The notes: a model not told the origin generated them from the letters alone. A stretch of 63,997 bases of DNA, filler included, from Malassezia furfur (GCA_052055015.1; 14 parts of 14 records of this genome joined end to end with filler, not necessarily neighbours in it), one strand, 5' to 3'. Shown: positions 417 to 63,997, counted from the first letter of the whole stretch. Made by a program: numbers and translations.

Positions 417-3054
417 CTACCGCGTCCAGTTGAGCAGCGCCTCGGCGGCCTCGCGCACCTGCGCGTTGGCGTGCGTGTGCGCGAGCAGGAAGAGCTCGTA
501 GGCCGCCTCGCCGCTCGGCAGCACGCGCGCGCCCTCGGGGATCGTCGCGTACGCGTCGTGCTGCCCGTCGCGCACCGAGTCGCGGTTGTCGATCAGCGTC
601 TCGAAGCGCGAGTCGACCACCGCGGTGCGCGCGAGGATCGTGTGCGCGATGCGCAGCGCACGCAGCGCACTGCCCGTCGGCCAGTGCAGCGTCGCGGTGA
701 GCAGGCGCTTGAGGATCGCCGCGCTGCGGTCCAGCGTCATGTACACGCTCTGCCGCGACACCTGCACAAAGCCCACGTCGAGCGCGTGGAAGAGCATCGC
801 GGCCTCGCTCCAGCGGCGCAGCCCGGGCGTCGGGCCGCGCTGCTTGGGCACCTGCGCGGGCGCCGGCAGCGCCGCCTCCTCCTCGAAGCACGTGCTCACA
901 CTCAGCGGCAGCAGCAGCTGGTACAGCGCCACGTGGAACGCCGCGATGTCGATCTCGAGCGCCTCGCCCTGCCCGCGCAGCAGCTCGAGCGCGGTGACGA
1001 TCATGAGCAGCGCCGCGCGCATGCCGACGTGCCGCGGCGCCGCACGCAGGTCGTCCGTCTCGATCGTGTGCGCCGCCTCGACCTCGGCCATCGCGTCGGC
1101 GAGGCGCGTGCGCAGCACCTGCACGAGGTCGTAGAAAAAGTCCAGACTCACATGGTGCGCATACAGCACGATGCCCTCGAGCGCCGCGGCGAGCAGCTGC
1201 TGCGGCACGTCGGGCGTCTTGAGGATGCGGAAGTAGAGCGCAAACACGAGCTTGAGCGTCTCCGATTGCTGGGTAAGTAGCAGAACGTACATGGCGCGTG
1301 CGCTCCTCGACGTCGACGGCCGCCTCCGCCTCGCGCATCTCCTCCTCGATCGCGCGCAGCTCCTTGTTGCGCTTCGCCTGCTTCTTGCTCACGTGCGTGG
1401 CGAGCCCTTTGCGCACCGCCTTGGGGTCCGCACGCCGGCTCTCGGCGGCGCTCGTGTGCCGCGACTTGGCGCGCGGCTTCGCGACGCTCGCCGTGCCCAT
1501 CGGGCCCGTGCGGTGGCCCTTGCCGAGCTCGTCGCGCAGCCGCAGGTGCGCAAGCAGGTCGAGCACATTGGCGTGCACCGCCAGCTTCCGCTCGCGGATC
1601 ATGCGGTACAGCAGCATCACCGCCTCGAGCGCCACCTCGCCGTCGTGGTCGTTCGCCAGCAGCGTCACGAGCGCGCGGTAGCACTCCTCGGACGACGCCG
1701 TCCACGCCTTGCGCGACAGCTGCGCCACCACCACCGCCAGCAGGTTCTTGCGGTAGTTGAAGTGCGTCGCGCGCGTCAGCAGCGTACAGAACGCACGCAG
1801 CGCCACGGGCGCCAGCGGCGTCGCGCTGCGCACCTCGGCCTCGCACAGCTCGAGGTACGCGCGGTACACCTGCACAAGGCCCTGCTCCCACTCGCGCCGC
1901 CGCGCCACCTCCTGGCTCACCTTCTCCTTCTCCTCCTGCTCGGACAGCGGGCGGATGCGGTAGCCGGGCACAATGTCTACAAACACGGCCAGCAGCGAGA
2001 GCAGCGCAAGCTGCCGGATGTACACATGCACCACCACGCGCGGCTTGCCCTGCACGCCCGGCGGCGCATCCGCACGCCGCTCCGCAAACACGAGCAGGCG
2101 CCGCAGCCAGTGCAGGCCCATCTCGGGGTCGCCCACGATCTGCGACGCAAGGTGCGCAATCTGCTCGCGTGCCATCGCAAGCGCCGCGGCGACCGTCGCC
2201 GCGTCCTTGGACTGCGCCTCGGCAATTACCTCGTACGGCGCACGCAGCCCAAACCGCGTCGAGTGCACCGCGGACGACGGCGGGCCGCTCGCGGGCGCAC
2301 GCTGCGCCGCCTCGTCGTCATCGCTCTCGTCGTCGCTCTCGCGGAACACGACGCGGCTCGCCTCGGGCTCCGCGTCGGAGTCGGACGCGTCGAGCTCGGC
2401 AATCGCGCCGTCTTCGGTGCGCACGGGCAGCCGGCGGTGCGCCAGCGCCTCGCGCGCGCGCTCGCGTGCGCGCTCCTCGCGCTTGGAGCGCTTTGCAGCC
2501 TGCTGGAGGTATGCGTCTTCGAGATCGCTCGCGCGGCCCTCGTCGAGGTCTTCGCTGTCGTCCAGCGCGGAGTCGTCCAGCGCGGCGTCGTCCAGCTCGC
2601 TGTCGTCCAGCTCGGCGTCGTCCAGCTCGCTGTCGCCTTCGCTGTCACTCGCGCCCTCCATGTCCGTCGACTCGTCGCCGGACACGCTCGCCTCGCGCTC
2701 GCGGCGGAGCGCATCGAGCGCCTCGCGCTGCTTTCGCTTCTCGGCCTGGAGCCGCGCGCGCTCCTTTCCCTGTGCGCCGGCCTCGCTGACGTCCGGCAGG
2801 CGCGCGCGCGACAGGAACTGCATCGCGTGCACGTCGTCGTCGTCGTCGCTGCCGACCATGGCCTGCGCGTCGTGCGCCAACGCCGCGAGCTCCGCTGGGT
2901 CGTCGTCGTCGTCGGGGTTGGGGCGCACGCGCTTCGCCTGCGGCAGCGCCTTTTTGGGCGCCGCACGTTTCGCAGGCTTGGCGGCGTGTGCTGCGCCGCG
3001 TGCGCCCGCGCCGCGGCCACGCGCGGCGCCGCGACCTGCCCCGCTGCGCGCCAT
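417..3054 (-). CDS. NOC3: Nucleolar complex-associated protein 3, 2 exons (22-nt intron 1269-1290)
   Basis: Acidic/basic N-terminus; SLLAVFVDIVPGYRIRPLSEQE, THFNYRKNLL and QSETLKLVFALYFRILK motifs; the GTACGT..CTTAC.CCAG intron joins the two ORF frames. Confidence 0.88.
2557..2640 (-). repeat. Coding 15-bp tandem repeat (ELDDA/ELDDS/ALDDS) within NOC3
   Basis: Repeated gtcgtccagc core with 15-bp period. Confidence 0.8.
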
Positions 3055-3097
3055 CGTCCTGGAATCCAAGGGGGGCGCACAAAAAAACGGCGCGTCC

Positions 3098-3103
3098 CAC
3101 GTG
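3098..3103. promoter_or_regulatory. CACGTG E-box in the NOC3/KEX1 divergent promoter
   Basis: Palindrome centred in a 100-bp ATG-to-ATG spacer; the same motif recurs in nearly all divergent spacers. Confidence 0.6.
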
Positions 3104-3154
3104 ATACCTCCACACCTCCGCACGAACGCCCCGGCGCCTGGGACGCACAGCAGC

Positions 3155-4672
3155 ATGGCGAAGCTCGCGGCGCGCTCCTTCTTTGTGGGCCATGTGCCCG
3201 ACGTGCCGCCGGTCGAGCCGGGGCGCGAGTTTGTGGTCGAGGCAGGCTACCTGCCCGCGCGCCCGCCCGCGAACGGCGAGGCGGCGAAGGACAATGCCCA
3301 CCTCTACTTCCTGCTGCACCGCGCGATGTACAAGCCGAAGCGGCGCAAGCTCGTCGTGTGGCTCAACGGCGGGCCCGGGTGCTCGAGCTTCGACGGGTCG
3401 ATGATGGAGATCGGCGCGTGGCGCTTCGACGGCGCGAACCTGTCGTGGACGCCGCCGGGCGGGAGCTGGAACGAGTACGCCGACGTGCTCTACGGTACGT
3501 ATGCGCAGGTGCGCTGACGCGCAGTCGACCAGCCGGTGGGCACGGGCTTTTCGTACGTGCAGAACGACGCGTACGCGACGTCGCTCGCGCAGGTCGGCGC
3601 CGAGTTCCTCTACTTCCTGCGCGAGTTTGTCGCGGCGTACCCCGAGTACGACCGGCAGCGGCACCTGGACGCGGGCCCCGGCGGCGCGGTCGACGTGTAC
3701 ATCGCGGGCGAGAGCTACGCGGGCCAGTTCATCCCGTACATCGCGGACGCGCTCGTCAAGGCGGGCCAGAACAACCCCGTGCACCTCGCGGGCATTGCGA
3801 TCGGCAACGGCGACCTCGACCCCAAGCACCAGGGCGGCAGCGAGGTCGACATGATGCTCGCCGCGGGCCTCTGGAAGCCCGACGGCCCCGAGATGCGCGC
3901 CATTGCGCCGACCGTGCAGCAGTGCCGCGACGCGGTGGCGCGCGATGCGACGCCGAAGGCCGCGTACGCCGCGTGCGACGCCGTGCTGTCGCAGCTGCTG
4001 TCGCTCACGACGCGCACCGAGAACGGCACCGAGGTGTGCCTGAACACGTACGACCTGCGCCTCGTCGACACGTCGCCCGCGTGCGGCATGAACTGGCCGC
4101 CGGAGCTCGCGGCGACCTACGCCTTCCTGCGCAAGCCCGCGGTGCGCAAGGCGCTGCACGTCGACGACACCCAGAAGCCGCAGGCGTGGGTCGAGTGCAA
4201 CACGGCCGTCGGCCACGCGCTGCAGGAGCACGCGGCGCAGATGGACGCGAGCGTCGCGCTGCTGCCCGGCCTGCTCGAGGCGCACGTGCCGGTGCTGCTG
4301 TTTGCGGGCGACCAGGACGTGATCTGCAACGCGATCGGCCTGCAGCGCACCGTCGACGCGCTCGCGTGGGGCGGGCAGCGCGGCCTCGCGAGCGCGCCGC
4401 GCGACTGGCGCATCAACGGCGAGCTCGTCGGCACGTGGCAGTCGGACCGCAACCTGACCTGGGTCAAGGTGCACCAGGCGTCGCACATGCCCGCGTACGA
4501 CGCGCCGCTCGCGGTGCACGACATGATGCTGCGCTTCATGCAGGTCGACATGAACCTCGGCGCGGGCGTCGCCGCGTGGAACACGAGCACGGTCGGCCTC
4601 GACGCGCGCATCCTCGTGCCGGACCGCGGCAAGACGCGCGTGCCGATGCGCCCGCCGCCGCCCCGCCCGCCC
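3155..4672 (+). CDS. KEX1: Kex1-like serine carboxypeptidase (peptidase S10), 3' truncated; 30-nt intron 3495-3524
   Basis: WLNGGPGCSSFDG, Y|VDQPVGTGFSY restored by splicing, GESYAG (Ser), GDQDVIC (Asp), ASHMPAYD (His), CGMNWPP. Confidence 0.85.
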
Positions 4673-6490: not shown

Positions 6491-7281
6491 ATGTCTGCTT
6501 TCCGTGCTACGCGTACGCTGCTCAAGCGTGTGCCTGAGTCGCCCGAGAAGTACCACTATACCGAGGGACAGACTCCGTTCTGGCGCAAGGTCCGCCACCT
6601 GCTCTCGCTGAACCCGTATGTCACGTCACTCATCGCAGGGAAATCTCGTCCGGTCTGCCCGACCCGGTGCTGGTGCGTTGCATTGCAGCGCACGTTGTCT
6701 AACGCAGAACCGGTATCCCCAACCCGCTTCGCGCCCGGAAAAGCCAGCGACGGTGCCGTCGAAGGGTACGTACATCCACGGCTCCCTTGGACCTTGCTAA
6801 CACGGCGCGCTTCGCTGCGCACGTACTACGATAGCTTCGGGTATGTCTTTCTTCACTTACCCAGACATCGCTGCGAACCTGTACCACAACCGTGACTTCC
6901 GTCGCAAGTACCCCCAGACGGACGTCATTACGCAGCACTACCTCACTGAGCTGCTCCTGGCGAGCCCCAACGAAGACGGCACGAAGAGGTATGTTGCGCA
7001 CGGCGCTCACGCAGCATCCCTGCCGGTGACGAGTCGGGATCCACCGCACTCACGCGCCCGAGCGACCTCAACTCGCCGACGGCCTTCACCGAAGTGCTGA
7101 ACCAGGTGCAGCTTGAGCCGCAGAACAAGTACACGTCCACCAACATGCCGCCGTCGTTCCCGTCGACGAAGCCGCAGCACATCCTCAAGGTGCAGAAGGG
7201 TGCGATCCCCAAGGGCAAGGACCACTACCTGCCTATGTACGTCCCCCGCGCGACTCACCCTTCAGCGACAACTTTGCGTAG
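6491..7281 (+). CDS. Mitochondrial complex I accessory subunit (fungal 21.3a/NUZM type), 7 exons including a 6-nt microexon
   Basis: Introns 6616-6638, 6673-6707, 6766-6834, 6841-6864, 6989-7014 and 7237-7265 give a continuous protein: FWRKVRHLLSLNPEISSGLP...PSKASDIAANLYHNRDFRRKYP. Confidence 0.75.
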
Positions 7282-7337: not shown

Positions 7338-7966
7338 ATGTTCACGTAGGTGGAACGACTGAACGCGTAGCTTGCTGCAGCGGCTAAATGTCGTGACTGC
7401 CTTTATGACCAGCGTCGTCTCGGTGCTGCTTCTGGCAGTCGCCCTGACGAATGTGTCGTTCCGCGCGCCGGCGTGCCAGATCGACGTGAAGCACCTCGAC
7501 CTGTATGTCGCAGCACTCACCCAGCGTATACGGGCGCGCCGCGTCGCACAGCGACCGCCGTACGCAGGACTTCCTCGAGACGTCGCTCGAGCTGGACATG
7601 GACGTCTCGTCGTTGTTCACGTGGGACACCAAGCAGGTGTTTCTGAGCATCGTCGGGTCTTATACCTCGCCGAACCGCGTACGTCGCTTTCTGACGCAGC
7701 CCCAAAACGAGGTCGTGTTCTGGGACAGGATCGTGCGGAGCAAGCGGCAGTCCAAGGTGCATGTGCCCAACCTGCGCAACAAGTATGGGCTGCGCGAGGT
7801 GTCGCGCACCTTTCAAAACATCACGTCGATCGAATTCAGCGTACACTGGAACGTGATGCCGTACGTCGGCATGATGCGGCACGGGCGCACGGATTTCACG
7901 CCGCCCGTCGCGCTGCCCGCGCCCGCCGAGGTGTCGGCAAACAAGGTTCGGCTATTGCATTACTAG
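7338..7966 (+). CDS. SPC3: Signal peptidase complex subunit 3 (SPC22/23), 4 exons
   Basis: MFTLLQRLNV plus TM segment; DVSSLFTWDTKQVFL, NEVVFWDRIV, NKYGL, WNVMPYVG; introns 7346-7370, 7503-7524, 7679-7699. Confidence 0.9.
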
Positions 7967-8012
7967 GATATCACGAGTAGACGAAGTGTACGATGCACAG
8001 AGCACAGCGCGC

Positions 8013-10290: not shown

Positions 10291-13200
10291 ATGTGGCAAG
10301 CAAGCCCCCCCTCGACGCGGCCTGGGACGCCCAGCCGCAAGATGAGCGACAGTCTCTCGCGTGTGGGGACGCTTCAAGGCAAACCGGAGTACGCCCACAC
10401 CGTGCAGACCGTGCCGTCGATCAGCAGCGTCTCGCTGAGCACCGCGTCGTCGCGCCCCCTGCTGGGCCGCCTGACCGCGTCGCGGGCCAAGCACGACGAG
10501 CTGGAGAAGGACGAAGAGGTGCTGTGTGGTTTCCTCAAAAAGAGCACCGGCCCATGGAGCATGGCGTGGTGGGCGGACGCCGTGCCGAAACACCGTGCGC
10601 CGCGCACGGAGCCAGGGCGTGGCTGGCGCCCGTTCAAGGTGATTCTGGCGCGCGGTACGCTCTACTTTTACAAGGTGCCGAGCGTGATGATCCCCGAGAT
10701 CCGGAGCACGTTCCAGATCCGTGCCTCGGTGTGGCCCACGGAGCTGGACGAAGTCGAGGCGCCCGTTGCGTCGCTGGACGACGATCTGCCGCCGTCGGCG
10801 CTGGCGTCCAGCGACACCACCTCCCTCTTTCATGAGGCGCTCGTCGACACGGTCTGGGAGCAGGCTGGCAAGCACCCCGAGCTGCACCTCGTGCAGACGG
10901 GCGTGCTGCCTGCGAGCTGGACGGCGCGCATCGAGCACGCAACGGGCCCGGCGCTGGCGCACGAGCTCGTGTTTGGCACGCAGCGCGTTGCGGTGCACGC
11001 GTCGCCCTACGGCCCGGTGGGTGACGCGAGCCGCGCGTGCGACCGCGACGAGCGCAAGTTTCTGCACATTGTGTTTTACGCGCTGGGCACGTCCTCGGTG
11101 CCGTTTGACGCGTTCCTGAAGCAGGTGCACACGGCGCTGCTGCTCGCTGAGCGTCTTGGCGCGGTGCACACGGACGTAGGGTGCGTGCGGCGCGTGTCGC
11201 TTTTCCTCGAGCTTTTCCTGTGGAAGCGCCCGCTGCTCCGTGGCGGCCACGAAACGCTCTTTTTCCGCGAGGCCGAGGCGCTCGCGGCGGAGCTGACGCG
11301 CCTCGAGCCCGGGATGTACGTGTCGCTTACGCGCCAGTTCCGCGCGTGGCGCGAGACGTATTGCGACACCGTCGGGGCCCCGACCGACTTCCAGCACACC
11401 GACGCGCCGCTCGTGCGCCGTGCGGCGCTCGAGCCGCTGCACGTGTGCTGGAGCAGCGCGCTGTTCCTCGCGTGCGACCCGCTGGAGGTCGCACAGCAGA
11501 TCCAGTGTTTCCACGCGGACCGCCTTGCGGCGCTGGTGCGTGCGCCCATCACGGCGTACCGCCTGGCGAGCACCGTTTCGGAGCCGCTGCTGCGCTCCTT
11601 CCGCTTTGACGCGTCGCGCCCGCACTGGCTTTCGCATGTCCTCTTGCGCCAGATTCTCGTAGACGACGCACCCGAACGCCAGGACGGCGGCGAGCGCGCC
11701 GGCGTCGTGGCGCACTGGGTCGCCGTCGGGCACGCCGTGCTGCAGCTGCGCGATATGGCCGCCTGGACGGCGATCGCCGCGGTGCTGTGCTCGCGCCCCG
11801 TCGCGTGCGTCGAGTGCGTCTGGCGCCGGCTCGACCCCAGCGTGCGGGAGGAGCTCGCGGCGTGGACCGAGCAGCTCGCCGCGCTCGGATGGGTCGAGGG
11901 CGTGCACACGGGGCTTGCGCCGCGCTGGAGTGTTGCCGGCGCGCCTGACGTGCACGCCGTGCCGTTCCTCGGCAACGCCGGCCTGACACAGGCCGCAACG
12001 CCGCTCCTGCGCAAGGCGCGCGCCGCGACGCGTGTGCAGATTGCCGCACAGGAGCCCGAGTTCAACCGCGTGCGCGCGCTCGCCCAGCGCCTCGCGAGCC
12101 TGTACGAGGACGCGACGCCCGTTGCGGCGTGTGCGCCGCCGATCGCCGAGTGGCAGTGCCTGTTCCAGCGGCTCGCGCAGCACGAGTACCCGCTGCACAC
12201 CGGGATCACCGACTACCTCGGCAGCGCGGTGCTCGCCTCGGGCCTCGCCGATGTGCGTGCGTGTGCGCCGCGTGCGGCGTGGGCTGCAGGCGCGCCGCTG
12301 CCCCTGTTCCCGCCGCCGCTGCCGGCCGCGGTGCCTGGGGCGATGGCGCCGGGCGCATGGCCGCGTCTGTTTGACTGGCTCGCGCGCTACGAGCAGCGTG
12401 GCGAGGAGGTCATGCTCGGCGACGCGCTGCGCCTGCGGGCGATCCCTGAGCCGCGGAGCCGCGCGAGCATTGCGTGTGCCGAGGCGCTAGCAGCGCCGCT
12501 CGGCCTGCGCCGCCTCGCATCGCCCACGGCGAGCTTGGACGCGCTCGCCAACTTGGCGCGCCCCGCCGAGGCCGCGTCGCAGTACGCCGTCGAGGTGGCG
12601 GCCGTGAGCCCCGCACGCATCGGTACGTCGTGTCTCGACTAACCCAGTGGACCTGCTTGTGCTGGGCGCATCGCACCTCGTTGTGCGCTCGCCCGTGCCG
12701 CAGCGCGAGCCGCCCGAGTACCGCGTGCTGCACGTCGTGCTGGACTGGGCGGCGTTCCGCGACGCGGTGCTGTTGGCGCACCATGACGTGCTGCCGAGCG
12801 CGTCGCTGCTCGATGCCCTCCGCCTGCGCTGGGACGAGGCCGAGGCCGCGAGCCGCGAGATGGCGTGGCACGCGCGCTCCCATGTCCCGAACCAGTATCC
12901 CTCGTGGACGAGCGGCGCAGCGTACGCACGCGAGCCGGCGGACTGGAGCATGGTGGCCAAGATCCGGCACGGCGTGCTCACCACGCTGCAGCGCTGGCTT
13001 GCGCTGTGCCCGCACGAATTTGTCGCGGACCCCGTGCTGTTTGAGGCGGCGCACACGTTCCTCGCCGACGCGGCGGCCGAGTGTGATGCGAGTCCGGCGG
13101 ATGCGCCGCGCCTCGCGAGCTTGGTCGAGACCCTGCGCGAAACGTATCCCCGCCTCGCCCAGCATACGGCGGCGCAGTACGCACACGAGCCGCCGCGCGC

Positions 13201-24554: not shown

Positions 24555-25969
24555 ATGTCGGACGGCGTACAGGACGTCACGGACGGCGTGCAGGCGCTCC
24601 AGCTGGGTACGTGGTGCACACTTACGCAGACGTCACGAAGCTCACCCCCCTCTCGCCCGAGGTCATCCGGAACCAGGCGACGATCAACATCGGCACGATT
24701 GGCCACGTCGCGCACGGCAAGTCGACGGTGGTCAAGGCGATTTCCGGCGTGCAGACGGTGCGCTTCAAGAACGAGCTGGTGCGCAACATCACGATCAAGC
24801 TCGGCTATGCGAACGCGAAGATCTACAAGTGCGAGAACCCCAAGTGCCTGCGCCCGCAGTGCTACCAGAGCTACCCCAGCTCCAAGGAGGACCACCCGCC
24901 GTGCCCCAACCCCGGGTGCGGCGGCAAGATGGACCTGGTGCGCCACGTCTCGTTCGTCGACTGCCCCGGCCACGATATCCTGATGGCGACCATGCTCAAC
25001 GGCGCGGCGGTCATGGACGCCGCGCTGCTGCTCATCGCCGGCAACGAGCCGTGCCCGCAGCCGCAGACGAGCGAGCATCTTGCGGCGGTCGAGATCATGA
25101 AGCTGCAGCACATCATCATCCTCCAGAACAAGGTCGACCTGATCCGCGAGCCGGCCGCCGAGGAGCACTGGAAGAGCATCACGGCGTTCGTCAAGGGCAC
25201 GGTCGCCGACGGCGCGCCGATCGTGCCGATTTCGGCGCAGCTGAAGTACAACATCGACGCGGTGAACGAAAACATTGTCAAAAAGGTGCCGGTGCCCGTG
25301 CGCGACTTTACGGCGTCGCCGCGCCTGATCGTCATCCGCTCGTTCGACGTGAACAAGCCGGGCGCGGAGATCGACGAGCTCAAGGGCGGCGTCGCCGGCG
25401 GCTCCATCCTGTCGGGTGTGCTGCGCCTCGGGCAGGAGATCGAGGTGCGCCCCGGCATCGTCACGAAGGACAGCGAGGGCAAGATCCACTGCCGTCCGAT
25501 CTACTCGCGCATTGTGTCGCTGCTCGCCGAGCACAACCCGCTGCAGTTCGCCGTGCCCGGCGGGCTGATCGGTGTCGGCACCAAGATCGACCCGACGCTG
25601 TGCCGTGCGGACCGCCTGGTGGGCCAGGTGCTCGGCGAGGTCGGCAAGCTCCCGGCGATCTACACGGAGCTCGAGATCAACTACTTCCTGCTGCGCCGCC
25701 TGCTCGGTGTCAAGTCGGACGACAAGAAGCAGACCAAGGTGCAGAAGCTCGCGAAGAACGAGGTGCTGATGGTCAACATCGGCTCGACGTCGACGGGCGG
25801 GCGCGTGATGAGCGTCAAGGCGGACCTTGCGAAGATCTTCCTCACGTCGCCCGCGTGCACCGAGGTCGGCGAGAAGATCGCGCTCAGCCGGCGAATCGAC
25901 AAGCACTGGCGCCTCGTCGGCTGGGGCACCGTGCGCCGCGGCACGCAGCTCGAGGTGGATGCGCCGTAG
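24555..25969 (+). CDS. GCD11: Translation initiation factor eIF2 gamma; 23-nt intron 24607-24629
   Basis: [56 protein letters not shown]. Confidence 0.97.
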
Positions 25970-25984: not shown

Positions 25985-26642
25985 ATGGGATCGGGCGATC
26001 GGGCCTCGCTCTGTATGCCCGCCGCCACGCGCTTCTGGGGCGCGGCGCCGGCGCCGCCGGTGGACGCGCCCGCCGAGGGCCAGGGGCTGCTCGGCTTCTT
26101 CCAGAGCGGGCTGTCGGGCTATGTGCCGCTGCGCAGCGGCGAGCGCACGAACGAGGAGGAGGCGTACATCAGCCTGAGCCACTGGGAGCGCTTCCTCGGC
26201 TTTCTGTGCTGCCTCGCGGGCAGCGCGCTGTGCTTCCTGTTCTCCTTCTTCTTCCTCACGCCGCCGATCCTCGCGCTGCGCCCGCACAAGTTTGCGCTCG
26301 CGTTCACGCTCGGCAACGTGCTCTTCCTCGTCGGGTACGTTGGCGCGCCGGCTCCCCCCACTCACACGCAGCTTCGCCGTGCTCTCGGGCCCCCGGGCGC
26401 ACCTGCGGCACCTGTTCAGCGCAGAGCGCTGGCCGTTCAGCACCGCGTACCTCTCGTCGATGGTCGGCACGCTCTACTTTGCGCTCGGCCCGCGCTGGCG
26501 CCTCGTGACGCTGCTGTGCGCGGTAATGGAAATGGCGGCGCTGCTCACCTATGTAGCCGCCTACTTCCCCGGCGGCACGACGACGCTGCGGTACGCCGCG
26601 TCGATGCTCGCGCGCGGGGGATCGAGTCTGCTGCCGCTGTAG
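25985..26642 (+). CDS. SFT2: Golgi transport protein Sft2 (4-TM); 37-nt intron 26335-26371; alternative start at 26015
   Basis: SLSHWERFLGF, RPHKFALAFTLG, FAVLSGPRAHLRHLFSAER, YFPGGTTTL. Confidence 0.85.
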
Positions 26643-26646: not shown

Positions 26647-27057
26647 TTAGTGGTGCTCCTTGTGCTCGAGGTGCGGGTCCTTCTGCAGCTCGGCAAGGTA
26701 CTTTTCCACCATCTCGGTCTCGTAGACCGCCTCCTCGCTCCGCGCGTTGATCGGCACGTCCTCGGGGTCGTACGCCTTGAACTCGTCAAACGCCTTGTCG
26801 AGGTCCGCGCCCACGACGCTCGGCGTGTGCTTCGGCGGCTCGGGGTGCGAGAACTCGCGCACGGCGCCCTTGTGCGCGTTGGGGTCCTGCTCCGGCGGCT
26901 CGAACGACTTGAGCGTCTTCAGGTAGAGCTCCTGGACGAGGTCTGGGTCAGTCCAACTCCACGCACCCTTGCGGGCCACCGCCGAGGTCGACAGCGCACG
27001 CACGCCGGTCGTGCGCGCCGCAGTGAGAGAGCGCTGGGCGATCGATAGCATCATCAT
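26647..27057 (-). CDS. ATP14: Mitochondrial ATP synthase subunit h; in-frame 24-nt intron 26943-26966
   Basis: Presequence ending STSAVARK then DLVQELYLKTLKSF, typical of fungal subunit h. Confidence 0.85.
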   Translation of the reverse strand: MMMLSIAQRSLTAARTTGVRALSTSAVARKGAWSWTDPDLVQELYLKTLKSFEPPEQDPNAHKGAVREFSHPEPPKHTPSVVGADLDKAFDEFKAYDPEDVPINARSEEAVYETEMVEKYLAELQKDPHLEHKEHH

Positions 27058-39519: not shown

Positions 39520-40095
39520 ATGGTGAGTAACGCAGAGGACGGGGTGATGTTGGTCTCTAAGTATCGCTGCTCGCGACATGGCCGTGTATTCTGCTGGATG
39601 TGGGCACAACAAAAGACGTGCTTTACGGACCGGATTACACACGAACATGTTCTGGGTGGTAATTGAAGAGCGCTCCCATCACCTCGTACTTCCTTTTTGT
39701 GCTTCGAACATATACTAACGTCACAGCCCAAGGTTCGCACTCACGATCTCCACAACAAGTCCAAGGCGGACCTGCTTTCGCTCCTCGACGAGCTGAAGGC
39801 TGAGCTCCTCCAGCTCCGTGTCCAGAAGGTGGCTGGTGGCGGCTCGAGCAAGCTCGGCCGCATCAACACGGTGCGCAAGAACATTGCTCGTACCCTCACG
39901 ATCATCAACCTCAAGCAGCGTGCGAGCCTGCGTGAGTTCTACAAGGGCAAGAAGTACCAGCCCCTGGACCTCCGTGCCAAGAAGACTCGCGCGCTCCGCC
40001 GCAAGCTCACCAAGCACGAGCAGAAGAAGGTTACTGAGCGCCAGCACAAGAAGAACGTGCACTTCGGCACCCGCCGCTACGTCATCAAGGCGTAA
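39520..40095 (+). CDS. RPL35: 60S ribosomal protein L35 (uL29); ATG-only first exon and 204-nt intron 39523-39726
   Basis: [51 protein letters not shown] donor, TACTAAC 39713-39719, CAG acceptor. Confidence 0.95.
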
Positions 40096-40566: not shown

Positions 40567-40910
40567 TTACGCGCCGCCGCTGTTGTGTTAGAGGTTCGCT
40601 TGTCGTGCACATACACAAGCTGGGAAAGAGCGCGAATAGCGCCAGTGTCAGTACGTGTTCATATACGCGTAGTAGGACGTACAATGTTGTTAATGGGGAT
40701 ATGGATCAGTTTCACCAGATAACCAATGAAACCCATCACGAGAAAGCCGACACCGACGGCACGGCACATTTGGATATACTCTGCCATAAGTCACAATCTT
40801 TGCGCAAACGCACCCTTGCGGTCGGGCTTAGTACACCGGTTCAAGAAGTGCACACCCTCATGCACAAACGACACAGGAAGGTCGACAATCTCACGGATCC
40901 GCTCCGACAT
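40567..40910 (-). CDS. SSS1: Sec61 gamma subunit, 4 exons including a 5-nt microexon (40615-40619)
   Basis: Introns 40781-40813, 40620-40682 and 40580-40614 give [49 protein letters not shown]. Confidence 0.93.
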
Positions 40911-41522: not shown

Positions 41523-42296
41523 CTAGCTACGTTGTACAGAGAATCCAAACTTGGAGACTTGCACACGCCGCGCTACGCCGAATGCAATGGCAAACGCAAC
41601 GACGGAAAGGACAACGGCCAGGGGCGTGGGGGTGACTGTGCGCCCCCATACGGTGTCCCACAAGGCCAACATGATTTCCACAACGAGCAGGGTGCCGATG
41701 GTATATCCCGACATTCTTGGGTCAGTGCAGAATACGTACCTGTGGTATTTCCAGAGACCCTTTGCTCTGGCCGTGGATCCATACGCTTTTCCGTTGGCCC
41801 ATACGGTCGACATGCCAAACAAAGCTTGAACCCAGAGTAGGACAAACAAAAGTGCACCCAGGATCCCATGCAACGAAATAAAGTGCTTTGCGCCAGGCTT
41901 ACCGTGTGCGTGCCACATAACCCACACACCGGCTGTCAACAGCGGAAGTCCAAGGCCGAGGACGAACACTTGATGCGCGTACAAGCCCATCTTTTTGGTG
42001 GGCGGTGTATCGGTTGGCTGAAGCACTAAAATCCCTTGCAACAGGAATAATAGCCCCGTAGACACGAGCAACGGGTGGTAAAGTGGTGCGGGCACGCGCC
42101 CGCCCGTGAAATAGAGGACGAGGCACCAGATACTCGCGACTAAGCCGACGCCGCCTGCTTGGACCCAAGCTGCGCGCGCACCAAGGTTCCCCGCAAGGAA
42201 AGCACCCAAAGATGGCGTCGCCTCTGAACCTTCTTCTGCGCTCACGAGGCGCTCGTGTTCCCCATCGGAGGCTAACGCAGGCAACATTGCAGACAT
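41523..42296 (-). CDS. Cytochrome b561-domain membrane protein; in-frame 24-nt intron 41716-41739
   Basis: YHPLL, HQVF, HFISLHGILG and WKYHR|MSGY heme-His motifs with several TM helices. Confidence 0.85.
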   Translation of the reverse strand: MSAMLPALASDGEHERLVSAEEGSEATPSLGAFLAGNLGARAAWVQAGGVGLVASIWCLVLYFTGGRVPAPLYHPLLVSTGLLFLLQGILVLQPTDTPPTKKMGLYAHQVFVLGLGLPLLTAGVWVMWHAHGKPGAKHFISLHGILGALLFVLLWVQALFGMSTVWANGKAYGSTARAKGLWKYHRYVFCTDPRMSGYTIGTLLVVEIMLALWDTVWGRTVTPTPLAVVLSVVAFAIAFGVARRVQVSKFGFSVQRS

Positions 42297-44209: not shown

Positions 44210-46020
44210 CTAAGGCAACTCGCTGGGTCAGACATACACATACCTTCTCTCAATCTGCCCCGTCGCGGGATAGTACGTAGCCCATCCAAACGCACTGCCC
44301 CGGAACGACCCAGGATTAAAGACGTGGCACCCCTCGTACGTCAGTGCGTACCGCTCGTAGCGGTCGGCGAGCACCAGCTGTGGTCAGCGTCGTTATGCAT
44401 ACGCACCGCACTGGGCATCGGGTACAGCCGCAGCGCATGCGCATACTCCCACAGCACGGGGCGCACGGGCTGCGGCAGGGGACACAGATGCACCTGGTCG
44501 AGCAGCGTCGAGACGAGCTGCGTGAGCGGCGGCACGTACCAGCTTCGGCAGGTCGCTCGCCTGCACGTCGGTCGACAGCGGCAGCGCACTGCGCAGCATC
44601 TTGCTCATCACGTCGTCGCGGAACACGACAATCTCCTGCGAAAAGTACACGAGGCGGCACGGATTGCTCGCCCAGTGCACGCGCTCCGCACAAAACGCAC
44701 GCGGCAGGCGCCGCTCAAAGCGCGCCACGAGCGGCGCAGGGATGCGCGCGCGGGGCAGCACGGGCGTCGCGACGGGGTCGTCGGGGCCGGGCACGAGCAC
44801 GAGATGCGTCTCGTCCAGCAGGCGCGGGAAACGCGCGAGGATCTCGGCGAGCGCCGCAAACCCTTCCTCGTACCGCGCGAGGTGCGCCGCATCGTCCGCG
44901 CCGCGCGTCCCGCAAAAGTTGCCGCACAGCACAATCGCGAGCGGCACAAAGTCCGCGTCGTGGTAGCCCTGGAACAGCGCACGCAGATTCGACAGCGACG
45001 CGGCATGGTCCAAGTGCACCTCGCTCAGCACCGCAATGCACACGTCGCCATGCTGCCGCTCCTGCACACGCAGCGCATGCTGCATCAGTAGGGTGCACGT
45101 ACCGCCTCCTTGGGCGCGAGCGCCCCGGTGCCGAGCCAGTCGAGGTGCCCGACGTGCGTTTGCGCCGCCTCGCGGCTCTCGCTGGGCGGATGCCCAATCG
45201 CCGCGACGCGCAGCCGCTCGTCCGCCTCGTAGGTGCCCTCGACGAGCACAAATGCGCCCTCGGTCAGCAGGCCCTCGCCCGCGACCGCCTCGCGCAGGTC
45301 GAGCACGACGGCGCCCTCGGCGTCCTCGAGCGCGTAGGCGCCGTCGGGGCGCGTCGAGAGCCGGCCGAACAGCAGGCACGCCTTGCCTGCGCGGCCCAGC
45401 AGGTTCGCCGTCGTGGTCAGCTGCAGGAACGACGCGCGCTCCGCGCCGGACGCGAGCGCAAGCGGCGGCAAAAAGTGCTCGTTGCGCAGCACAATGCTGC
45501 GCAGCAGCTCGTAGCGCTCGCCCAGGTGCGCACTGGGCGCGCTTGCCGACGACAAGAGCGACGGCGCGTGGTCCGCCCTGCGTCAGTAGAGCACGTACGC
45601 CTCAAACACCTTGCGCGCGCCGCTGAAGCGCAGCTTCGGCATGGAAAACGCGTCGACGACGCGCAGCGCACGCGTCAGGTCCGGCGCGTCGCTGCTGCCG
45701 GCGAGCGCCGCGGCCGCATCGGCGTCCGCGGGCGCATCGACGAGCCGCTCGTACGTGCGCTGCAGCACCTCGGCGGTGACCACGTGCCCGTCCCACGCCG
45801 CGCCCGCGCTCCCCTGGTGCTCGACGAGCGCGTGCGCCAGCGCGTCGACGGCCTCCGACATCGCCTCGGGCTCGTCGAGCAGGCCGTGCGCCTGCAGCGT
45901 GCCGTACACAAACTGCACCGCATCCGCACGCACCTGCAGATGGTGCTTCCGCGTAAACGTGCGCAGGATCAGCCGCCGCACCGCAGGGGGGATGGCGCCG
46001 CCCTCGCGTCCGCCGTCCAT
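44210..46020 (-). CDS. DPB2: DNA polymerase epsilon subunit B, 6 exons
   Basis: [15 protein letters not shown]...[58 protein letters not shown]; introns 45578-45598, 45080-45102, 44518-44539, 44378-44406, 44223-44243. Confidence 0.92.
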
Positions 46021-47225: not shown

Positions 47226-48184
47226 GCGCCGAGACATGGCGTGCGCTCCTGCGCACGCACGGCCTGTCCGACGCGGACGATGCGCAGGCGGCGCGCGCGG
47301 GGCGGCCCGCCCAGCTGGCGCTCGCGCAGCGCCTGTACGCCGCGCGCCTCGCCGAGCTCCACGAGCAGATCCAGCACAAAGAGGCCCGCTTCCGGTACGT
47401 CGCCGTACTCACCCAGCGAGTTGCACCAGCGCCTGCTGGACCTCGAGGCGGGCAAGCTCGACGCCCAGCTTGCGGAAGAGCACGGCTTGGCGCGTGCGGC
47501 GTCGCCACACAAGCGGCCCGCCGACGCCGACGCCGACGCCGACGACGACGAAGAGATCAACGAGCACCGCCAGGTCGAGCAGGACCTGCTGGGCGCCGCG
47601 CCCGACGCCGCGCCCGACGCCGCGCACTCCGGCGCCGAGGCGGCGGGGCACGAGCGTGCGAGTGCGCAGCCCACCACGACGTACAAGTCGCGTGCGCGGC
47701 GGCGCACCGCCGAGGCGTCGCGCACGCCGTCGCCCGTGCGTGGGCGGCGCTCGCGCGGGCGCACGCCCGAGGCGTCCGAGCACTCGGCCGGCGAGGAGGC
47801 CGGCGACGGGGTGTCGGATGCGGAGCGCGACAAGACGCGGCGGCGGACGACGCAGGTGCTGCTGATGCTGCACAACCAGGTGTCGAACCACACGCACGGC
47901 AACCTGTTCCACCAGGCGATCAAGGAGGTGGATGCGCCGCACTACTATGCGCTGGTGAAGCGGCCTATGGACCTGAAGCTGATCAAGCAGCGGATCAAGG
48001 AGGGGGCGATTGCGTCGATGCCCGAGCTGCGGCACGCGCTGAGCCTCATGTTTGCGAATGCGCTGATGTACAACCGGCCGGACACCGAGGTGCACCGCAT
48101 GGCGAACGAGATGCGGCTCGCCACCGACGAGGTACGCCGCGCGCGCTGACCCAGATGTTGGACCAGTTTGAGCACGCCGCGTAG
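47226..48184 (+). CDS. BRD8-like bromodomain protein (5' truncated); introns 47395-47416 and 48132-48154
   Basis: Coiled coil [31 protein letters not shown]; bromodomain [36 protein letters not shown]. Confidence 0.8.
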
Positions 48185-48309: not shown

Positions 48310-49723
48310 ATGGTAGCGATGCTTCCGCGCGCCCTGCGTACGGCAGGTGCTAGTCTGGCGCGCCGCGCCGCGACTTCGAGCGTGCATGTGCAGCGCTGTG
48401 CCGGCGTGCGGGCCTTTGCGTCCGAGGCCGGCGACAAGCGCGAGAACCCGGCGTTCACGGCGACGACCGTCGAGGACATGCAGGGCCTGGACGCCTCGCT
48501 GCTCCTCAAGGAGGACGGCACGCAGAAGGACGCGAGCCTGCGGCACTTTACCGTCAACTTCGGCCCGCAGCACCCCGCCGCACACGGTGTGCTGCGTCTG
48601 ATCATGGAGCTGAACGGCGAGGAGATCCTCCGTGTGGACGTACGTACCCGCACTCACCCAGCCCCACGTCGGCCTGTTGCACCGCGGCACGGAAAAGCTC
48701 ATCGAATACAAGACGTACACGCAGGCGCTGCCCTACTTCGACCGCCTCGACTACAGTTCGATGATGACCAACGAGCTGTGCTTCTCGCGCGCGGTCGAAA
48801 AGCTGCTCAACATCGAGGTGCCCGAGCGCGCCAAGTGGATCCGCACGCTGTACGGCGAGCTGACGCGCATCTCGAACCACTGCATGGCCGTGCTGTCGCA
48901 CATCATGGACGTCGGCGGTCTGACGCCGTTCGTGTGGGGCCTCGAGGAGCGTGAAAAGATCATGGAGTTCTACGAGCGCGTGTCCGGCGCGCGTATGCAC
49001 GCGGCCTACGTGCGCCCCGGCGGTGTGGCGTACGACCTGCCCCCGGGCCTGCTCGAGGACATCTACCACTGGGCCACGCAGTTCTCCGGCCGCGTCGACG
49101 AGATCGAGGAGCTGGTCACCAACAACCGCATCTGGCAGCAGCGCACGATCGGCATCGGCAAGGTCACCGCGCAGGAGGCGCTCGACTACGGCTTCAGCGG
49201 CGTGATGCTGCGTGGCAGCGGCATCCCGTGGGACATCCGCAAGGTCGCGCCGTACGACGCGTACGAACAGTGCGAGTTCGACGTGCCCGTCGGCAAGAAC
49301 GGCGACTGCTTCGACCGCTACGCGTGCCGCATCGAGGAGTTCCGCCAGTCGCTGCGCATCATCAACCAGTGCCTCGACAAGATGCCCGCGGGCCAGATCA
49401 AGGTCGACGACCACAAGATTGCGCCCCCGTCGCGTGCGATGATGAAGGACAGCATGGAGAGCTTGATCCACCACTTCAAGCTCTTCTCCGAGGGCTACTC
49501 GGTGCCGCCGGGCGAGACGTACGCCGCCATCGAGGCGCCCAAGGGCGAGATGGGCGTGTACCTCGTCTCCAACGGCTCCAACCGCCCCTACCGCTGCTCG
49601 ATCTCCGCGCCCGGGTTCCGCCACCTCGCGGGCGCCGACTTTATGGCGCGTCACCACTACCTGCCGGACATGGTCGCGATCATCGGTACGATGGATCTCG
49701 TGTTCGGCGAGGTCGACAGGTAG
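48310..49723 (+). CDS. NDUFS2: NADH:ubiquinone oxidoreductase 49 kDa subunit (NDUFS2/NuoD); 22-nt intron 48640-48661
   Basis: [53 protein letters not shown]. Confidence 0.97.
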
Positions 49724-50176: not shown

Positions 50177-51505
50177 CTACAGCAACTTGGTATCGAGGCC
50201 GCCATAGAACCCGTCGCTGTCGTCGTACGACGACGCGCCGGTCAGCTTGCGCTGCCCGCGGTAAATCAGCCCATCGAGCAGCCCCGCGAGCGTGAGAATC
50301 CCGCCGACGATCGCACACAGGTTCGACACAAAGTGCCACAGCGAGCGGCGCGTCTCGGTCTGGGTGACGCGCATCGGGGAGATCTCGTAGTTGAAAAACA
50401 CGCCGGGGACGCCCTCGACGGTGCGCACGACCTGCCCGTCGCTCTGGTCGGGCGAGTCGTGCCCGAGCTTGGGGTCGTACGGCACCAGGTCGCGCTCGTA
50501 CGCCGTGGCGCTGTACTGGAACGTCTGCACGCGGTCGCCGTTGAGCTTGTGGTACACGGTGGGCACCACCTTCAAGAAGTACTGGAACATGAACTGGCTC
50601 TGCTCGGGGTGCGCCGAGCGCCCCTGGAGCGCGTCGGTGATGCCCAGCTCCTTCTTCTTGCTCTTGTCCGAGCGGCGCCCGCCGCGCTTCGGGAGGAACT
50701 CGTTGAGCGTGCCAAAGCTAAAGTCGTGGATGACGTGCCCAAAGTGGTGGTACTCGTCGCCGGCGCCCTGCAGGTAGGGCACCAGGTCGTGCGTGTGGAC
50801 GCTGTTCCGCTGGAACGCCCGGCCGGGGCTCATGTGCAGGTTGCCCACGACGCGGTTCGCGTGGACCTCGCCGGCGATGTTGCACCCCTCGTGGTTCATC
50901 GCGCGGATGCGCTCCGTCCAGTGCTCGTCGCGGCACTGCTGGATCTGGTCGGGGTTCGAGAACGACCAGCTGGAGCGCACGTAGGCGTCGCGCACGTCCT
51001 CGCACGAGTTGCAGCACCCGCCCGGGGGCGGGTCGGCGCCGTAGCACGAGCCGCAGTAGTTCACGTCGTGGCCCTGCTCCTCGAGGTAGCGCTGCGCCTC
51101 GCCCTTCAGCTGGCGGTCGGTGCGCGTGTCGAGTTTGCGGCCCTGGCTGTCGAGGCGCGTCTTGACGACGTCGTGGTTGATGTCGACCTGCATGTCGCCG
51201 ACAATGTCCACCACGTCGAGCGACAGCAGGTAGCACGGCACGCGGGGGAACGTCACGTTGAAGTGGATCGCAATCTTCGGGTCGCGCGCCAAATCCACCT
51301 CGAGCCGCGGCTCCACCGACACGCGGCGGTAGTCGAGGAACTCGCTGATGGTCAGCACGGCGACCAGCGCGCCGCTGAGCAGCGTGATCAGCGCGCCGAC
51401 ATTCGTGCGGATGCGTGCCTCGTCGGAAGTCTGTGTGAGCGGTGCACGTACCCTGCCAAACGCGTCCAGGCCACGCAGCTGGCCGAGCAGCTGCCCCGGG
51501 TGCAT
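50177..51505 (-). CDS. ERV46: ER-derived vesicle protein Erv46 (ERGIC3); in-frame 21-nt intron 51431-51451
   Basis: LDAFGR|TSDE, CGSCYGA..CCNSCEDVRDAY, VPGVFFNYEISPM, CAIVGG. Confidence 0.9.
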   Translation of the reverse strand: MHPGQLLGQLRGLDAFGRVRAPLTQTSDEARIRTNVGALITLLSGALVAVLTISEFLDYRRVSVEPRLEVDLARDPKIAIHFNVTFPRVPCYLLSLDVVDIVGDMQVDINHDVVKTRLDSQGRKLDTRTDRQLKGEAQRYLEEQGHDVNYCGSCYGADPPPGGCCNSCEDVRDAYVRSSWSFSNPDQIQQCRDEHWTERIRAMNHEGCNIAGEVHANRVVGNLHMSPGRAFQRNSVHTHDLVPYLQGAGDEYHHFGHVIHDFSFGTLNEFLPKRGGRRSDKSKKKELGITDALQGRSAHPEQSQFMFQYFLKVVPTVYHKLNGDRVQTFQYSATAYERDLVPYDPKLGHDSPDQSDGQVVRTVEGVPGVFFNYEISPMRVTQTETRRSLWHFVSNLCAIVGGILTLAGLLDGLIYRGQRKLTGASSYDDSDGFYGGLDTKLL

Positions 51506-51841: not shown

Positions 51842-53385
<1,544 letters not shown>

Positions 53386-59578: not shown

Positions 59579-60195
59579 ATGTACCTGCTGGGCGCGTACC
59601 TGCCGGACCACAAGCTCGTGCGCGTGCGTATTCCGTGCTGACCTTGCAGATTGCGCTCACGACCTTCTACGGGATCTCGTACGATACTGCGCTGCGGATC
59701 TGCGCGCGCATCGGCGTGCATGAGCGCGCGACGGTGATGTCGCTCACCGAGGCGCAGGTCACGGAGCTCTCCGCGTACCTCTCGTCGCCGGGCCTGATTC
59801 CCGCGCGCGGTGCCAGCCCGACGCGCGCCGCCGTCGATGCGCCGCCCGCTCAGGCGCCGCAGACCGCGACGCCGCCGCCGTCGCAGCGCGCGCAGGCATC
59901 CACCGACCCGCTGCGCTCCATCAAAATCGAGGGCGACCTCCGTCGCGACATGCTCGCCAACATTGCGCACCACCGCGCCATCGGTACATACAAGGGGCGG
60001 CGGCATGCGAACGGCTTCCCGGTGCGCGGGCAACGCACGCAGCGCAACGCACTCACCGCGCGCCGCCTGAACCGCCTCGAGCGCCGGCAGCTCTCCACTG
60101 CCACGGCGCCGCACGCACCTACGGACCCTGCTGCAACGCCCGCCCCGTCGCTCACGGAACTGCTGGCGCCGCTTGCGCGCGCGCGCTTCGTGTAG
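59579..60195 (+). CDS. SWS2: Mitochondrial ribosomal protein uS13m; 26-nt intron 59624-59649
   Basis: LPDHKLVR|IALTTFYGI, IEGDLRR...IGTYKGRRHANGFPVRGQRTQRNA. Confidence 0.9.
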
Positions 60196-60232: not shown

Positions 60233-60850
60233 TCAAAACAAATCCTCGAGCGTGAGCTGCTTGGCCACGTCCGTGTTGTTCACCATGTCGAGGAACTCGC
60301 TAAAGTCGAGCTTCCCGTCGCCGTTCTTGTCCGCCTCCATGATGGTCTTGTCGACGATCTGCTGCAGCTGCTGATCCTTCAGGTTGCCGCCGACCATCAT
60401 TTTGAGCACAAGGAACAGCTCGCCATTCGAGATGTAGCCGTCGCGGTCCATATCGTACACTTTGAACACAACTGCGTGGTTAGTTTCCCTGCGCGCGCAC
60501 GTACAGTGCATCTTTTCTTCGCGGCTGCCCTGGCTGCTGAATACACTCAGGCCATGCACAAACTCCTGGAAGTCGACCGAGCCGCCGCCACTGTGGTCAG
60601 CACACACGCCCAACGTACTCGGCGTCAAAGATCGAGATGAGCCGGTGCGCCAATGGGTTGTTGGCAACGGCAGGGATCTGCAGAAATTCGTCGCGGTCGA
60701 TGCACCCCGACCCGTCGCGGTCGAGTTTAAGGAAGCGTTTTTTTAGCCGCTGGATCTCGGGAGCGGAGACTGCGTCAGCTCGCACACACACCACCTACAA
60801 TTCGTGCTCCGCTCCATGTCGTTCAGCAACTGCGAGCCCTGCTGCCCCAT
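60233..60850 (-). CDS. CNB1: Calcineurin B regulatory subunit; introns 60770-60798, 60591-60618, 60472-60504
   Basis: MGQ myristoylation start; [53 protein letters not shown]; four EF-hands. Confidence 0.96.
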
Positions 60851-62750: not shown

Positions 62751-62786
62751 CGCCGTAGCGTCTCGTACCCCCACCTCCACACACGC

Positions 62787-63871
62787 ATGCGCGTGTCGAT
62801 CCCTTCGCTGCCCGCGGGGCCGCACGCCCCGCCCACCGTGCACAGCGTCGAGCGTGCCGTGCAGCTCATCGAGCAGCTGCTCGCACGCAACGCGCGCCCG
62901 CTCGTGCTCACGGGCGCGGGCGTGTCGGTGGACAGCGGGATCAAGTCGTACCGCGGCGAAAACGGCATGTACCGTACGTCGGCGCACCTCACCCAGTGAA
63001 CCGCGGCTACCGGCCCATCTACTTCCACGAGTTCGTCGACGCCGGCGCCGCAGGCGACGCCAAGCGCCACCGGTACTGGGCGCGCTCGTTCCTCGGCTAC
63101 CCGCCGCTCCGCATCGCACAGCCCAACACCACCCACACGGCGCTCGCGGCGCTCCAGCGCGCAGGGTCCGTGCACGGACTCATCACCCAGAACGTCGACC
63201 GCCTGCACCACGCCGCTTGGCACGGCGTGCCGCCCAACTCGGTCGAGCTCCACGGCGCGCTCTCCGAGGTGGAGTGCGTCGCGCGCGGGACGCAGGCGCC
63301 CAGGCACACCTCGCGCTGGTGGGACGTCGCCTCCTCCAAGACGTTTGGGCCCATGGACCGCTACACCACCGCACACATCCACGACGCGGGCACGGGCTGC
63401 GGCTTCGTCGCACCGCGCGACGCGCTCCAGGACGAGCTCGCGGACGCCAACCCGGCGTGGGCGACGTGGGCCGAGCGCCTCCTCCACGAGCCGGACCTCT
63501 CGCTGCGCCGCAACCCCGACGGCGACGTCCAGCTCGAGGGCGTCGACTACGATACCTTTGCATACCCCCCCTGCCCGTCGTGCGGCGGCGTGCTCAAGCC
63601 GGACGTGGTCTTCTTTGGCGAAAACGTACGCAACTCGGTGCGCCTCGCCGCCGAGCGCCTCGCGCGCGACGCCGATGCCCTGCTCGTCATCGGCTCGACG
63701 CTCGCGACGCACTCGGCGTACCGCCTCGTGCGCGACATGGTCGAGGCGGGCAAGCCCGCCATCCTGCTCAACCGCGGGCCGACGCGCGCCGACGCGCTCC
63801 TCGAGCACCGCATCGGCTTCGACTGTGCCCAGGTCATGGGGCAGGTCGTGCAAAACATGTTACATACATAG
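62787..63871 (+). CDS. Class II (SIRT4-like) sirtuin; 23-nt intron 62974-62996
   Basis: LTGAGVSVDSGIKSYRG, RYWARSFLG, ITQNVDRLH, ELHG, NPDGDV, CPSCGGVLKPDVVFFGEN. Confidence 0.9.
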
Positions 63872-63997
63872 CTACGACGTCGAGCTCGGCGCTTTGCGCT
63901 GCGTTAGTAAGACACGTACGGCTCGGCGCTCTTCGCGCAGGCGCTGCAGCTCGGCCATCTTGGCCGCCATCGCCGCCGAGGGGACCTTGGGGCCGGC
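63872..63997 (-). CDS. C-terminal fragment of an unidentified gene; probable 21-nt intron 63899-63919
   Basis: ..AKMAELQRLREERRA|RKAPSSTS*; intron GTACGTGTCTTACTAACGCAG. Confidence 0.55.
   Translation of the reverse strand, partial: AGPKVPSAAMAAKMAELQRLREERRAVRVLLTQRKAPSSTS

Follow-up and report, generated by a model that had tools for sequence, protein, structure and literature searches.

The stretch of DNA analysed here (hereafter the window, 63,997 nucleotides (nt) long with a GC content of 67%) is packed on both strands with protein-coding genes, many of which are interrupted by very short introns, the subject of this study. To judge from its homologs, the window belongs to the Malassezia furfur clade: one of its DPB2 exons and its Erv46 share 95% and 96% identity, respectively, with those of M. 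brasiliensis, and a single aligned residue separates its cytochrome b561-domain protein from that of M. furfur CBS9595. The curated inventory comprises 39 introns with a median length of 24 nt, a mean of 29.3 nt and a minimum of 21 nt. At the lower end of the distribution there are five introns of 21 nt, five of 22, six of 23, four of 24, two of 25 and two of 26 nt, followed by 28, 29 (three introns), 30, 33 (two), 34, 35 (two), 37 (two), 41, 63 and 99 nt. In this window, 24 of the 39 introns measure 21–26 nt, 28 are shorter than 30 nt and 29 do not exceed 30 nt. Intron lengths divisible by three (3n) are not depleted, because the three classes of length modulo 3 hold 14, 11 and 14 members.

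An original prediction made on the same DNA had counted 26 of 41 introns at 21–26 nt, five of them at 21 nt. The five were recovered, and our own count for the range is 24 of 39, two unverified candidates being needed to reach 26 of 41; this comparison was made by coordinate for ten of the introns and by count for the remainder of the 41. Left out as unverified were 6841-6864 (24 nt), for which a 6-nt exon is required and a 99-nt intron is the rival reading, and two intervals outside coding sequence, 19797-19818 (+, 22 nt) and 6424-6449 (−). Four long predicted introns (176, 233, 251 and 251 nt) were judged by eye to be gene fusions and excluded, and spurious 'introns' of 150–300 nt, which fused neighbouring genes under weak thresholds, were gone once the gene finder had been tightened. 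The introns of the inventory, cited below by their lower coordinate, are as follows.

1269..1290, minus strand: 22 nt, NOC3-like gene; GTACGT..TACTTAC..CCAG, frame shift.
3495..3524, plus strand: 30 nt, oxysterol-binding protein gene; in-frame stop, coding on both sides.
6616..6638, plus strand: 23 nt, small gene 6491-7281; frame-consistent exon chain.
6673..6707, plus strand: 35 nt, same small gene; frame-consistent exon chain.
6766..6864, plus strand: 99 nt, or 69 nt plus a 6-nt exon plus 24 nt (6841-6864); both in frame.
6989..7014, plus strand: 26 nt, small gene 6491-7281; frame shift.
7237..7265, plus strand: 29 nt, before the last five codons of gene 6491-7281; motif only.
7503..7524, plus strand: 22 nt, SPC3 (signal peptidase subunit 3); frame shift.
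7679..7699, plus strand: 21 nt, SPC3; read-through gives an exact 7-residue insertion relative to PDB SPCS3 chains 9rjb_D and 7p2p_B.
12623..12647, plus strand: 25 nt, large GEF-like gene; frame shift and in-frame stop.
24607..24629, plus strand: 23 nt, eIF2-gamma gene; frame shift.
26335..26371, plus strand: 37 nt, small membrane protein gene; frame shift.
26943..26966, minus strand: 24 nt, ATP synthase subunit h gene (Pfam PF10775); spliced form gap-free against 11 of 12 homologs.
27435..27471, plus strand: 37 nt, ATPase inhibitor (IATP) gene; motif, C-terminal exon.
34692..34716, minus strand: 25 nt, ubiquitin C-terminal hydrolase (UCH) gene; restores a 19-codon terminal exon.
35095..35118, minus strand: 24 nt, UCH gene, directly upstream of the catalytic NACGT motif; the read-through product aligns to UCH-L3 only with a gap.
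35746..35769, plus strand: 24 nt, Rab geranylgeranyltransferase beta gene; read-through gives an exact 8-residue insertion relative to 6o60_B.
39686..39726, plus strand: first intron of RPL35, 41 nt with the donor listed; TACTAAC and CAG acceptor clear, exon 2 matches Pfam L29.
40781..40813, minus strand: 33 nt, Sec61-gamma gene; in-frame stop on read-through.
40620..40682, minus strand: 63 nt, Sec61-gamma gene; stop on read-through.
40580..40614, minus strand: 35 nt, Sec61-gamma gene, after a 5-nt exon (40615-40619); C-terminus ..INNILVGGA.
41716..41739, minus strand: 24 nt, cytochrome b561-domain gene; spliced junction identical to M. furfur protein P0154.
44223..44243, minus strand: 21 nt, before the last four codons of DPB2; read-through ends in an in-frame TGA.
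44378..44406, minus strand: 29 nt, DPB2; junction gap-free in the homolog alignment.
44518..44539, minus strand: 22 nt, DPB2; frame shift and alignment.
45080..45102, minus strand: 23 nt, DPB2; frame shift and stop, alignment.
45578..45598, minus strand: 21 nt, DPB2; in-frame TGA, gap-free junction.
47395..47416, plus strand: 22 nt, bromodomain gene; frame shift.
48132..48154, plus strand: 23 nt, near the end of the bromodomain gene; motif, stop on read-through.
48640..48661, plus strand: 22 nt, complex I 49-kDa subunit gene; frame shift.
51431..51451, minus strand: 21 nt, Erv46 gene; seven read-through residues absent from 17 of 17 homologs.
52053..52075, plus strand: 23 nt, NDR/Dbf2-type kinase gene; frame shift.
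52589..52622, plus strand: 34 nt, same kinase gene; frame shift and stop.
59624..59649, plus strand: 26 nt, mitochondrial ribosomal protein S13 gene (Pfam S13); frame shift and in-frame TGA.
60770..60798, minus strand: 29 nt, calcineurin B intron 1; exon 2 starts at residue 19, as in the 175-residue 6tz8_B.
60591..60618, minus strand: 28 nt, calcineurin B intron 2; flanking exons are 6tz8_B residues 19-67 and 69-96, one codon split.
60472..60504, minus strand: 33 nt, calcineurin B intron 3; flanking exons are 6tz8_B residues 69-96 and 98-175, one codon split.
62974..62996, plus strand: 23 nt, sirtuin gene; frame shift.
63899..63919, minus strand: 21-nt candidate near the 3' end of a gene leaving the window; perfect motif only.

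All ten of the 21- and 22-nt intervals that had been predicted begin with GT and end with AG at the coordinates proposed. They lie on both strands (21 nt: 7679 +, 44223 −, 45578 −, 51431 − and 63899 −; 22 nt: 1269 −, 7503 +, 44518 −, 47395 + and 48640 +), and each combines a GTACGT or GTATGT donor with a CTNAC branch and an NCAG acceptor. Across the window, the strict pattern GTACGT-N(4-30)-CTNACNNAG occurs 13 times against 0.08 expected, a count reached in none of 100 shuffles, and its GTATGT version occurs five times against 0.03 expected; with a looser donor pattern there were 26 matches, whereas 50 dinucleotide shuffles gave 0.78 on average and 4 at most. Chance does not explain these matches. 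The pattern permits lengths of 19–45 nt, and all 18 strict matches fall at 21–26 nt. Seventeen of them are introns of the curated inventory on the same strand as the gene model, and the eighteenth is 6841-6864, nested within the longer intron and again on the gene-model strand.

The reading frame provided a test of another kind. A codon model was trained on 15 long open reading frames (ORFs) of the window, and each candidate was asked whether the coding frame moves across it by exactly its length modulo 3. In all 13 short introns of non-3n length flagged by this test (1269, 6989, 7503, 12623, 24607, 26335, 44518, 45080, 47395, 48640, 52053, 52589 and 62974), the downstream exon scored positive in the spliced frame only, read-through being strongly negative. 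The expectation that the 22- and 23-nt introns shift the frame was thus borne out in all five 22-nt introns, with downstream scores of +12.9 to +32.2 bits when spliced and −38.3 to −59.8 bits when read through, and in the 23-nt introns 24607, 45080, 52053 and 62974. One further 22-nt candidate, 11316-11337, was rejected because its read-through codes better.

Read-through meets an in-frame stop at 45578, where the TGA within DPB2 had been foreseen, and at 3495, 44223, 40781, 40620 and 59624, and leaves an open frame at 7679, 51431, 63899, 35746, 35095, 26943 and 41716. Four of the five 21-nt introns are confirmed by alignment with homologs or PDB chains or by an in-frame stop, and all four 24-nt introns by alignments with homologs or PDB chains. 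The five-intron model of DPB2 (21, 23, 22, 29 and 21 nt) is gap-free at all five junctions against 13 homologs; splicing at 44223..44243 yields the terminus ..ERSELP, which matches the ERSEL/ESEL C-termini of six of the 13, the remaining seven being truncated or read through. The single ATP synthase subunit h homolog that departs from the spliced form carries an unrelated insertion of its own at the site of 26943-26966, and the b561-domain proteins of other species diverge exactly at the junction of 41716..41739. In the UCH gene, the exon preceding 34692..34716 leaves ~20 residues unmatched at the end of the PDB homologs, and exon 2 of Sec61-gamma stops 4–5 residues short of the end of the PDB Sec61-gamma chains. 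Taken together, removal of the introns restores both the reading frame and collinearity with homologs.

Several gene models show finer detail. Between the 63- and 35-nt introns of Sec61-gamma there is an apparent 5-nt exon, CTTGT (40615-40619, −), and the C-terminus ..INNILVGGA was obtained solely with the reading that includes it. In the alternative readings of 6766-6864, the 6-nt exon is CTTCGG and the products differ by two residues. An extra 5' exon of SPC3 remains a candidate.

The introns share a common anatomy. All 39 have GT...AG ends; the donor hexamer is GTACGT in 23, GTGCGT in seven and GTATGT in six, with three other hexamers, and 31 of the 39 donors have C at position +4. A CTNAC branch motif was assigned in 36 introns (CTGAC 16, CTCAC 11, CTAAC 6 and CTTAC 3) and CTNAT in three, and the acceptor is CAG in 38. 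From the branch adenosine to the 3' end there are 5 nt in 24 introns, 6 in seven, 7 in two, 8 in five and 28 in one, which means a spacing of 5–8 nt in 38 of 39. Counted from the 5' end, this adenosine stands at position 16 in five introns, 17 in six, 18 in seven, and upward. The 21 nt of the shortest introns are the sum of 16 nt to the branch adenosine and 5 nt beyond it, both minima coming together in exactly the five 21-nt introns, where the donor hexamer and the branch heptamer are only 4 nt apart and CTNAC stands 2 nt from AG. The analysis supports the layout originally described, in which a short linker joins the donor to a CTNAC branch and AG follows closely. GT/AG ends, an extended donor consensus and a branch consensus with its adenosine point to the U2-type class. 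Non-spliceosomal introns, such as the bulge-helix-bulge (BHB) type of transfer RNA (tRNA) genes or the IRE1-cleaved type of HAC1/XBP1, lack GT-AG ends and a branch motif and are cut at a bulge-helix-bulge or at paired stem-loops; they do not fit, all 39 having GT-AG ends with donor and branch consensus.

On these grounds, the introns are very probably ordinary U2-type GT-AG spliceosomal introns, shortened until little more than their signals is left. Each consists of a 5' splice-site hexamer, a spacer of down to 4 nt, a yeast-like heptamer NNCTNAC and a CAG acceptor. Recognition may proceed by intron definition, via near-consensus pairing with U1/U6 and U2, and the 3' site would probably be the first AG at least 5 nt beyond the branch, since a polypyrimidine tract has no room. 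It is likely that the shortness arose from genome streamlining or deletion bias, continued until the signals would overlap.

Several points weigh against this interpretation. Splicing was deduced from sequence and homology, branch points were assigned by motif rather than mapped, and the proposed intron definition, choice of the first AG and deletion bias are steps that we infer. Six of the 39 introns are motif-only or uncertain at a boundary (63899, 7237, 27435, 48132, the donor of 39686, and 6766-6864); the first of these, 63899..63919, reads GTACGT..TACTAAC..GCAG with an open read-through frame and no support beyond this motif, and the RPL35 intron measures 41, 68 or 71 nt depending on the donor. 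The branch motif by itself is not diagnostic, because CTNACNNAG occurs 50 times in the window without a donor and is also a favoured codon string for Leu-Thr-Gln/Lys/Glu. Motif scores are not independent either, since the splice-signal weight matrix and the gene finder were trained on 15 of the same introns; the frame and homology tests are independent.

Other observations concern the window as a whole. It contains 26 runs of 44 N, paired and spaced ~every 4.7 kb (first pair 4673-4716 and 4729-4772), which interrupt several genes and were taken as masks, not biology. A composition profile showed no AT-rich island, ARAGORN found no tRNA gene in the whole window, and an Rfam scan of the same extent returned no family, hence no small nuclear RNA (snRNA) gene. 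In the regions 36400-39400 and 8000-10300, codon positions give a weak or flat signal even though long frames are open (e.g. 37959-39329); no gene was assigned there, and neither an RNA family nor a tRNA was found there by the Rfam and ARAGORN scans. Upstream of calcineurin B lies an ORF of 85 codons with good codon bias (61060-61314, −); a suspected likeness to the N-terminus of SF3b1 was dropped because Pfam gave no family.

The original prediction further proposed that 21 nt is a sharp floor. No validated intron is shorter, and the counts pile up at the lower edge, as expected under a hard limit; 0 of 39, however, bounds the matter weakly, the fraction below 21 nt being <~7.4% at 95%. Here 21 nt looks like what full-strength signals that do not overlap, together with a 4-nt spacer, add up to. 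It is not a universal physical limit, because Stentor splices introns of 15–16 nt (PMC9505925). It could be that 21 nt is just the smallest value of a small sample (n=39), with introns of 15–20 nt present elsewhere in the genome or arising from alternative donors, an idea that deserves to be taken seriously even though we do not favour it. Annotators of M. restricta allowed for such lengths by using a min_intron_len of 15-20 (PMC6473144). Seven motif candidates shorter than 21 nt were detected in the window, at 44223-44237 (15 nt), 60591-60607 (17), 59443-59460 (18), 60770-60787 (18), 44333-44351 (19), 55820-55839 (20) and 60770-60789 (20). The frame test rejected all seven; four of them lie within longer introns that were validated, and 44333-44351 was rejected as an intron, falling in DPB2 codons that are conserved among homologs. 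In addition, the strict pattern permitted 19–20 nt and returned no match of that length.

Two nested forms in frame, which could occur as minor products, speak for the small-sample explanation. The last DPB2 intron (44223-44243, −) has tandem donors, GTATGTGTATGT, the inner of which would give a 15-nt intron in frame; the protein would then end in ..ERRYVELP instead of ..ERSELP, and homologs favour the 21-nt form. Calcineurin B intron 1 (60770-60798, −) begins with GTAGGTGGTGTGTGTG, in which GT donors are nested. Its 20-nt form is in frame and adds three residues, whereas the 29-nt form gives the same residue numbering as 6tz8_B and is favoured by it.

A second alternative is that the 21-nt floor and the 5-nt spacing between branch and acceptor reflect a specially adapted spliceosome, unlike that of other basidiomycetes, in which, for instance, polypyrimidine recognition of the U2AF65/Mud2 type has been lost or altered, U1-BBP bridging has changed or branching factors have been trimmed. 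The missing space for a polypyrimidine tract (CTNAC to AG is 2 nt in 24 of 39 introns), the lengths piled at the lower edge with nothing below 21 nt, and the unusual C at donor position +4 (31 of 39), which could co-vary with U1 or U6, are all consistent with it, and a precedent exists in Stentor, whose branching factors have regions close to the active site that lack conservation (PMC9505925). However, Stentor splices its 15–16-nt introns with a set of spliceosomal proteins that is mostly conserved and includes homologs of U2AF1 and U2AF2 (PMC9505925, Table 1), so losses are not a requirement for tiny introns. On the machinery itself the window offers no evidence, the Rfam scan having found no snRNA gene in it, and the presence of introns of 63 and 99 nt, and of a branch-AG distance of 28 nt at 40620-40682, indicates that this machinery can handle more than the minimal layout. 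A specially adapted spliceosome is not required, and we consider it unlikely. The strongest version, a hard genome-wide limit of 21 nt set by a spliceosome that dispenses with polypyrimidine/U2AF65-type recognition and conventional U1-BBP bridging and measures 5 nt from the branch, seems to us quite improbable; it is a testable idea and, if true, would make a transformable yeast a tractable model for minimal-intron splicing.

Finally, it is highly unlikely that some stop-free 3n intervals escape obligatory splicing and serve, through retention or alternative splicing, as short coding stretches in frame, in spite of the open read-through at 7679, 51431, 63899, 35746, 35095, 26943 and 41716 and of public models from other species that carry an in-frame read-through of the homologous interval (P0166, P0155 and P0012), since the residues that read-through would insert are missing in 17 of 17 Erv46 proteins, 11 of 12 ATP synthase h proteins and all PDB homologs, would sit inside conserved cores (e.g. 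directly before the UCH catalytic motif), and in the other species are unrelated in sequence, as expected of unspliced introns in automatic calls.

The interpretation as compressed ordinary introns has consequences for annotation. Among seven named Malassezia DPB2 proteins, four (P0002, P0005, P0013 and P0017) lack the conserved region at the C-terminus and a fifth (P0006) leaves out 13 residues, and tiny 3n introns are read through in P0012 (DPB2), P0155 (b561) and P0166 (ATP synthase h). Since these Malassezia proteins, deposited or predicted automatically, either break off at tiny introns or include their translation, the public proteomes of Malassezia carry systematic errors at such sites, and gene finders for the genus therefore need a minimum intron length of at most 20 nt. 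An older annotation of M. globosa gives average introns of 76–79 nt (PMC4634964, Table 2), as against 30 bp in M. sympodialis.

Short introns had been described as known in Malassezia, and the literature agrees: they are a trait common to the genus. In M. sympodialis, 5350 curated introns average 30 bp, with 99% supported by RNA sequencing (PMC5389616, Table 2), and Supplementary Fig. S8 of that study is a cumulative plot with no minimum stated; in M. restricta the median is 30 bp (PMC9241646, Table 1) and the minimum for annotation was set to 15-20 (PMC6473144), and a review speaks of 'very short introns' in Malassezia genes (PMC7426719). The mean of 29.3 nt in the window thus agrees with the published genus value of 30. 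Those species share genus and phenomenon with the window, which comes from a different species, of the M. furfur clade, and the available portions of the M. sympodialis and M. restricta papers give no minimum, branch-acceptor spacing or donor consensus. A search that reached neither bioRxiv supplements nor most subscription journals found no explicit description of a Malassezia length floor, of the 5-nt branch-acceptor spacing or of the GTRCGT donor, and no inventory of Malassezia splicing factors. Our result adds a further species, with some anatomical detail, to a published trait of the genus.

The introns of Saccharomyces cerevisiae are alike in their signals, with a near-invariant GTATGT-type donor, a TACTAAC branch, first-AG choice of the 3' site and no strong polypyrimidine tract, but they are few, mostly 80–500 nt long, and their branch lies farther from the 3' site, in contrast to the 5 nt between branch adenosine and 3' end in the window. 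In length, the uniformly tiny GT-AG introns of the Bigelowiella natans nucleomorph, an endosymbiont-derived and extremely reduced genome, are comparable, with a sharp range of 18–21 nt. Microsporidia also have fungal-lineage introns shorter than 30 nt in reduced genomes, very few in number and, according to PMC13644364, spliced inefficiently (median ~25%), whereas the 64 kb of the window, from a commensal yeast that is free-living, hold ~39. The same 2026 paper on the shortest introns names ciliates, microsporidia and dicyemids as exceptional in having introns shorter than 30 bp, and the word Malassezia has no occurrence in it. With ciliates, the window has in common near-minimal GT-AG spliceosomal introns of narrow length distribution, about 25 bp in Paramecium (PMC5014332) and 15–16 nt in Stentor (PMC9505925). 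Ciliates are nevertheless an independent lineage, in which Stentor goes well below 21 nt, while the introns of the window keep a full-strength yeast-like donor and a TACTAAC-like branch that do not overlap. Malassezia is an under-used and genetically tractable case for the question of how little RNA a spliceosome needs.

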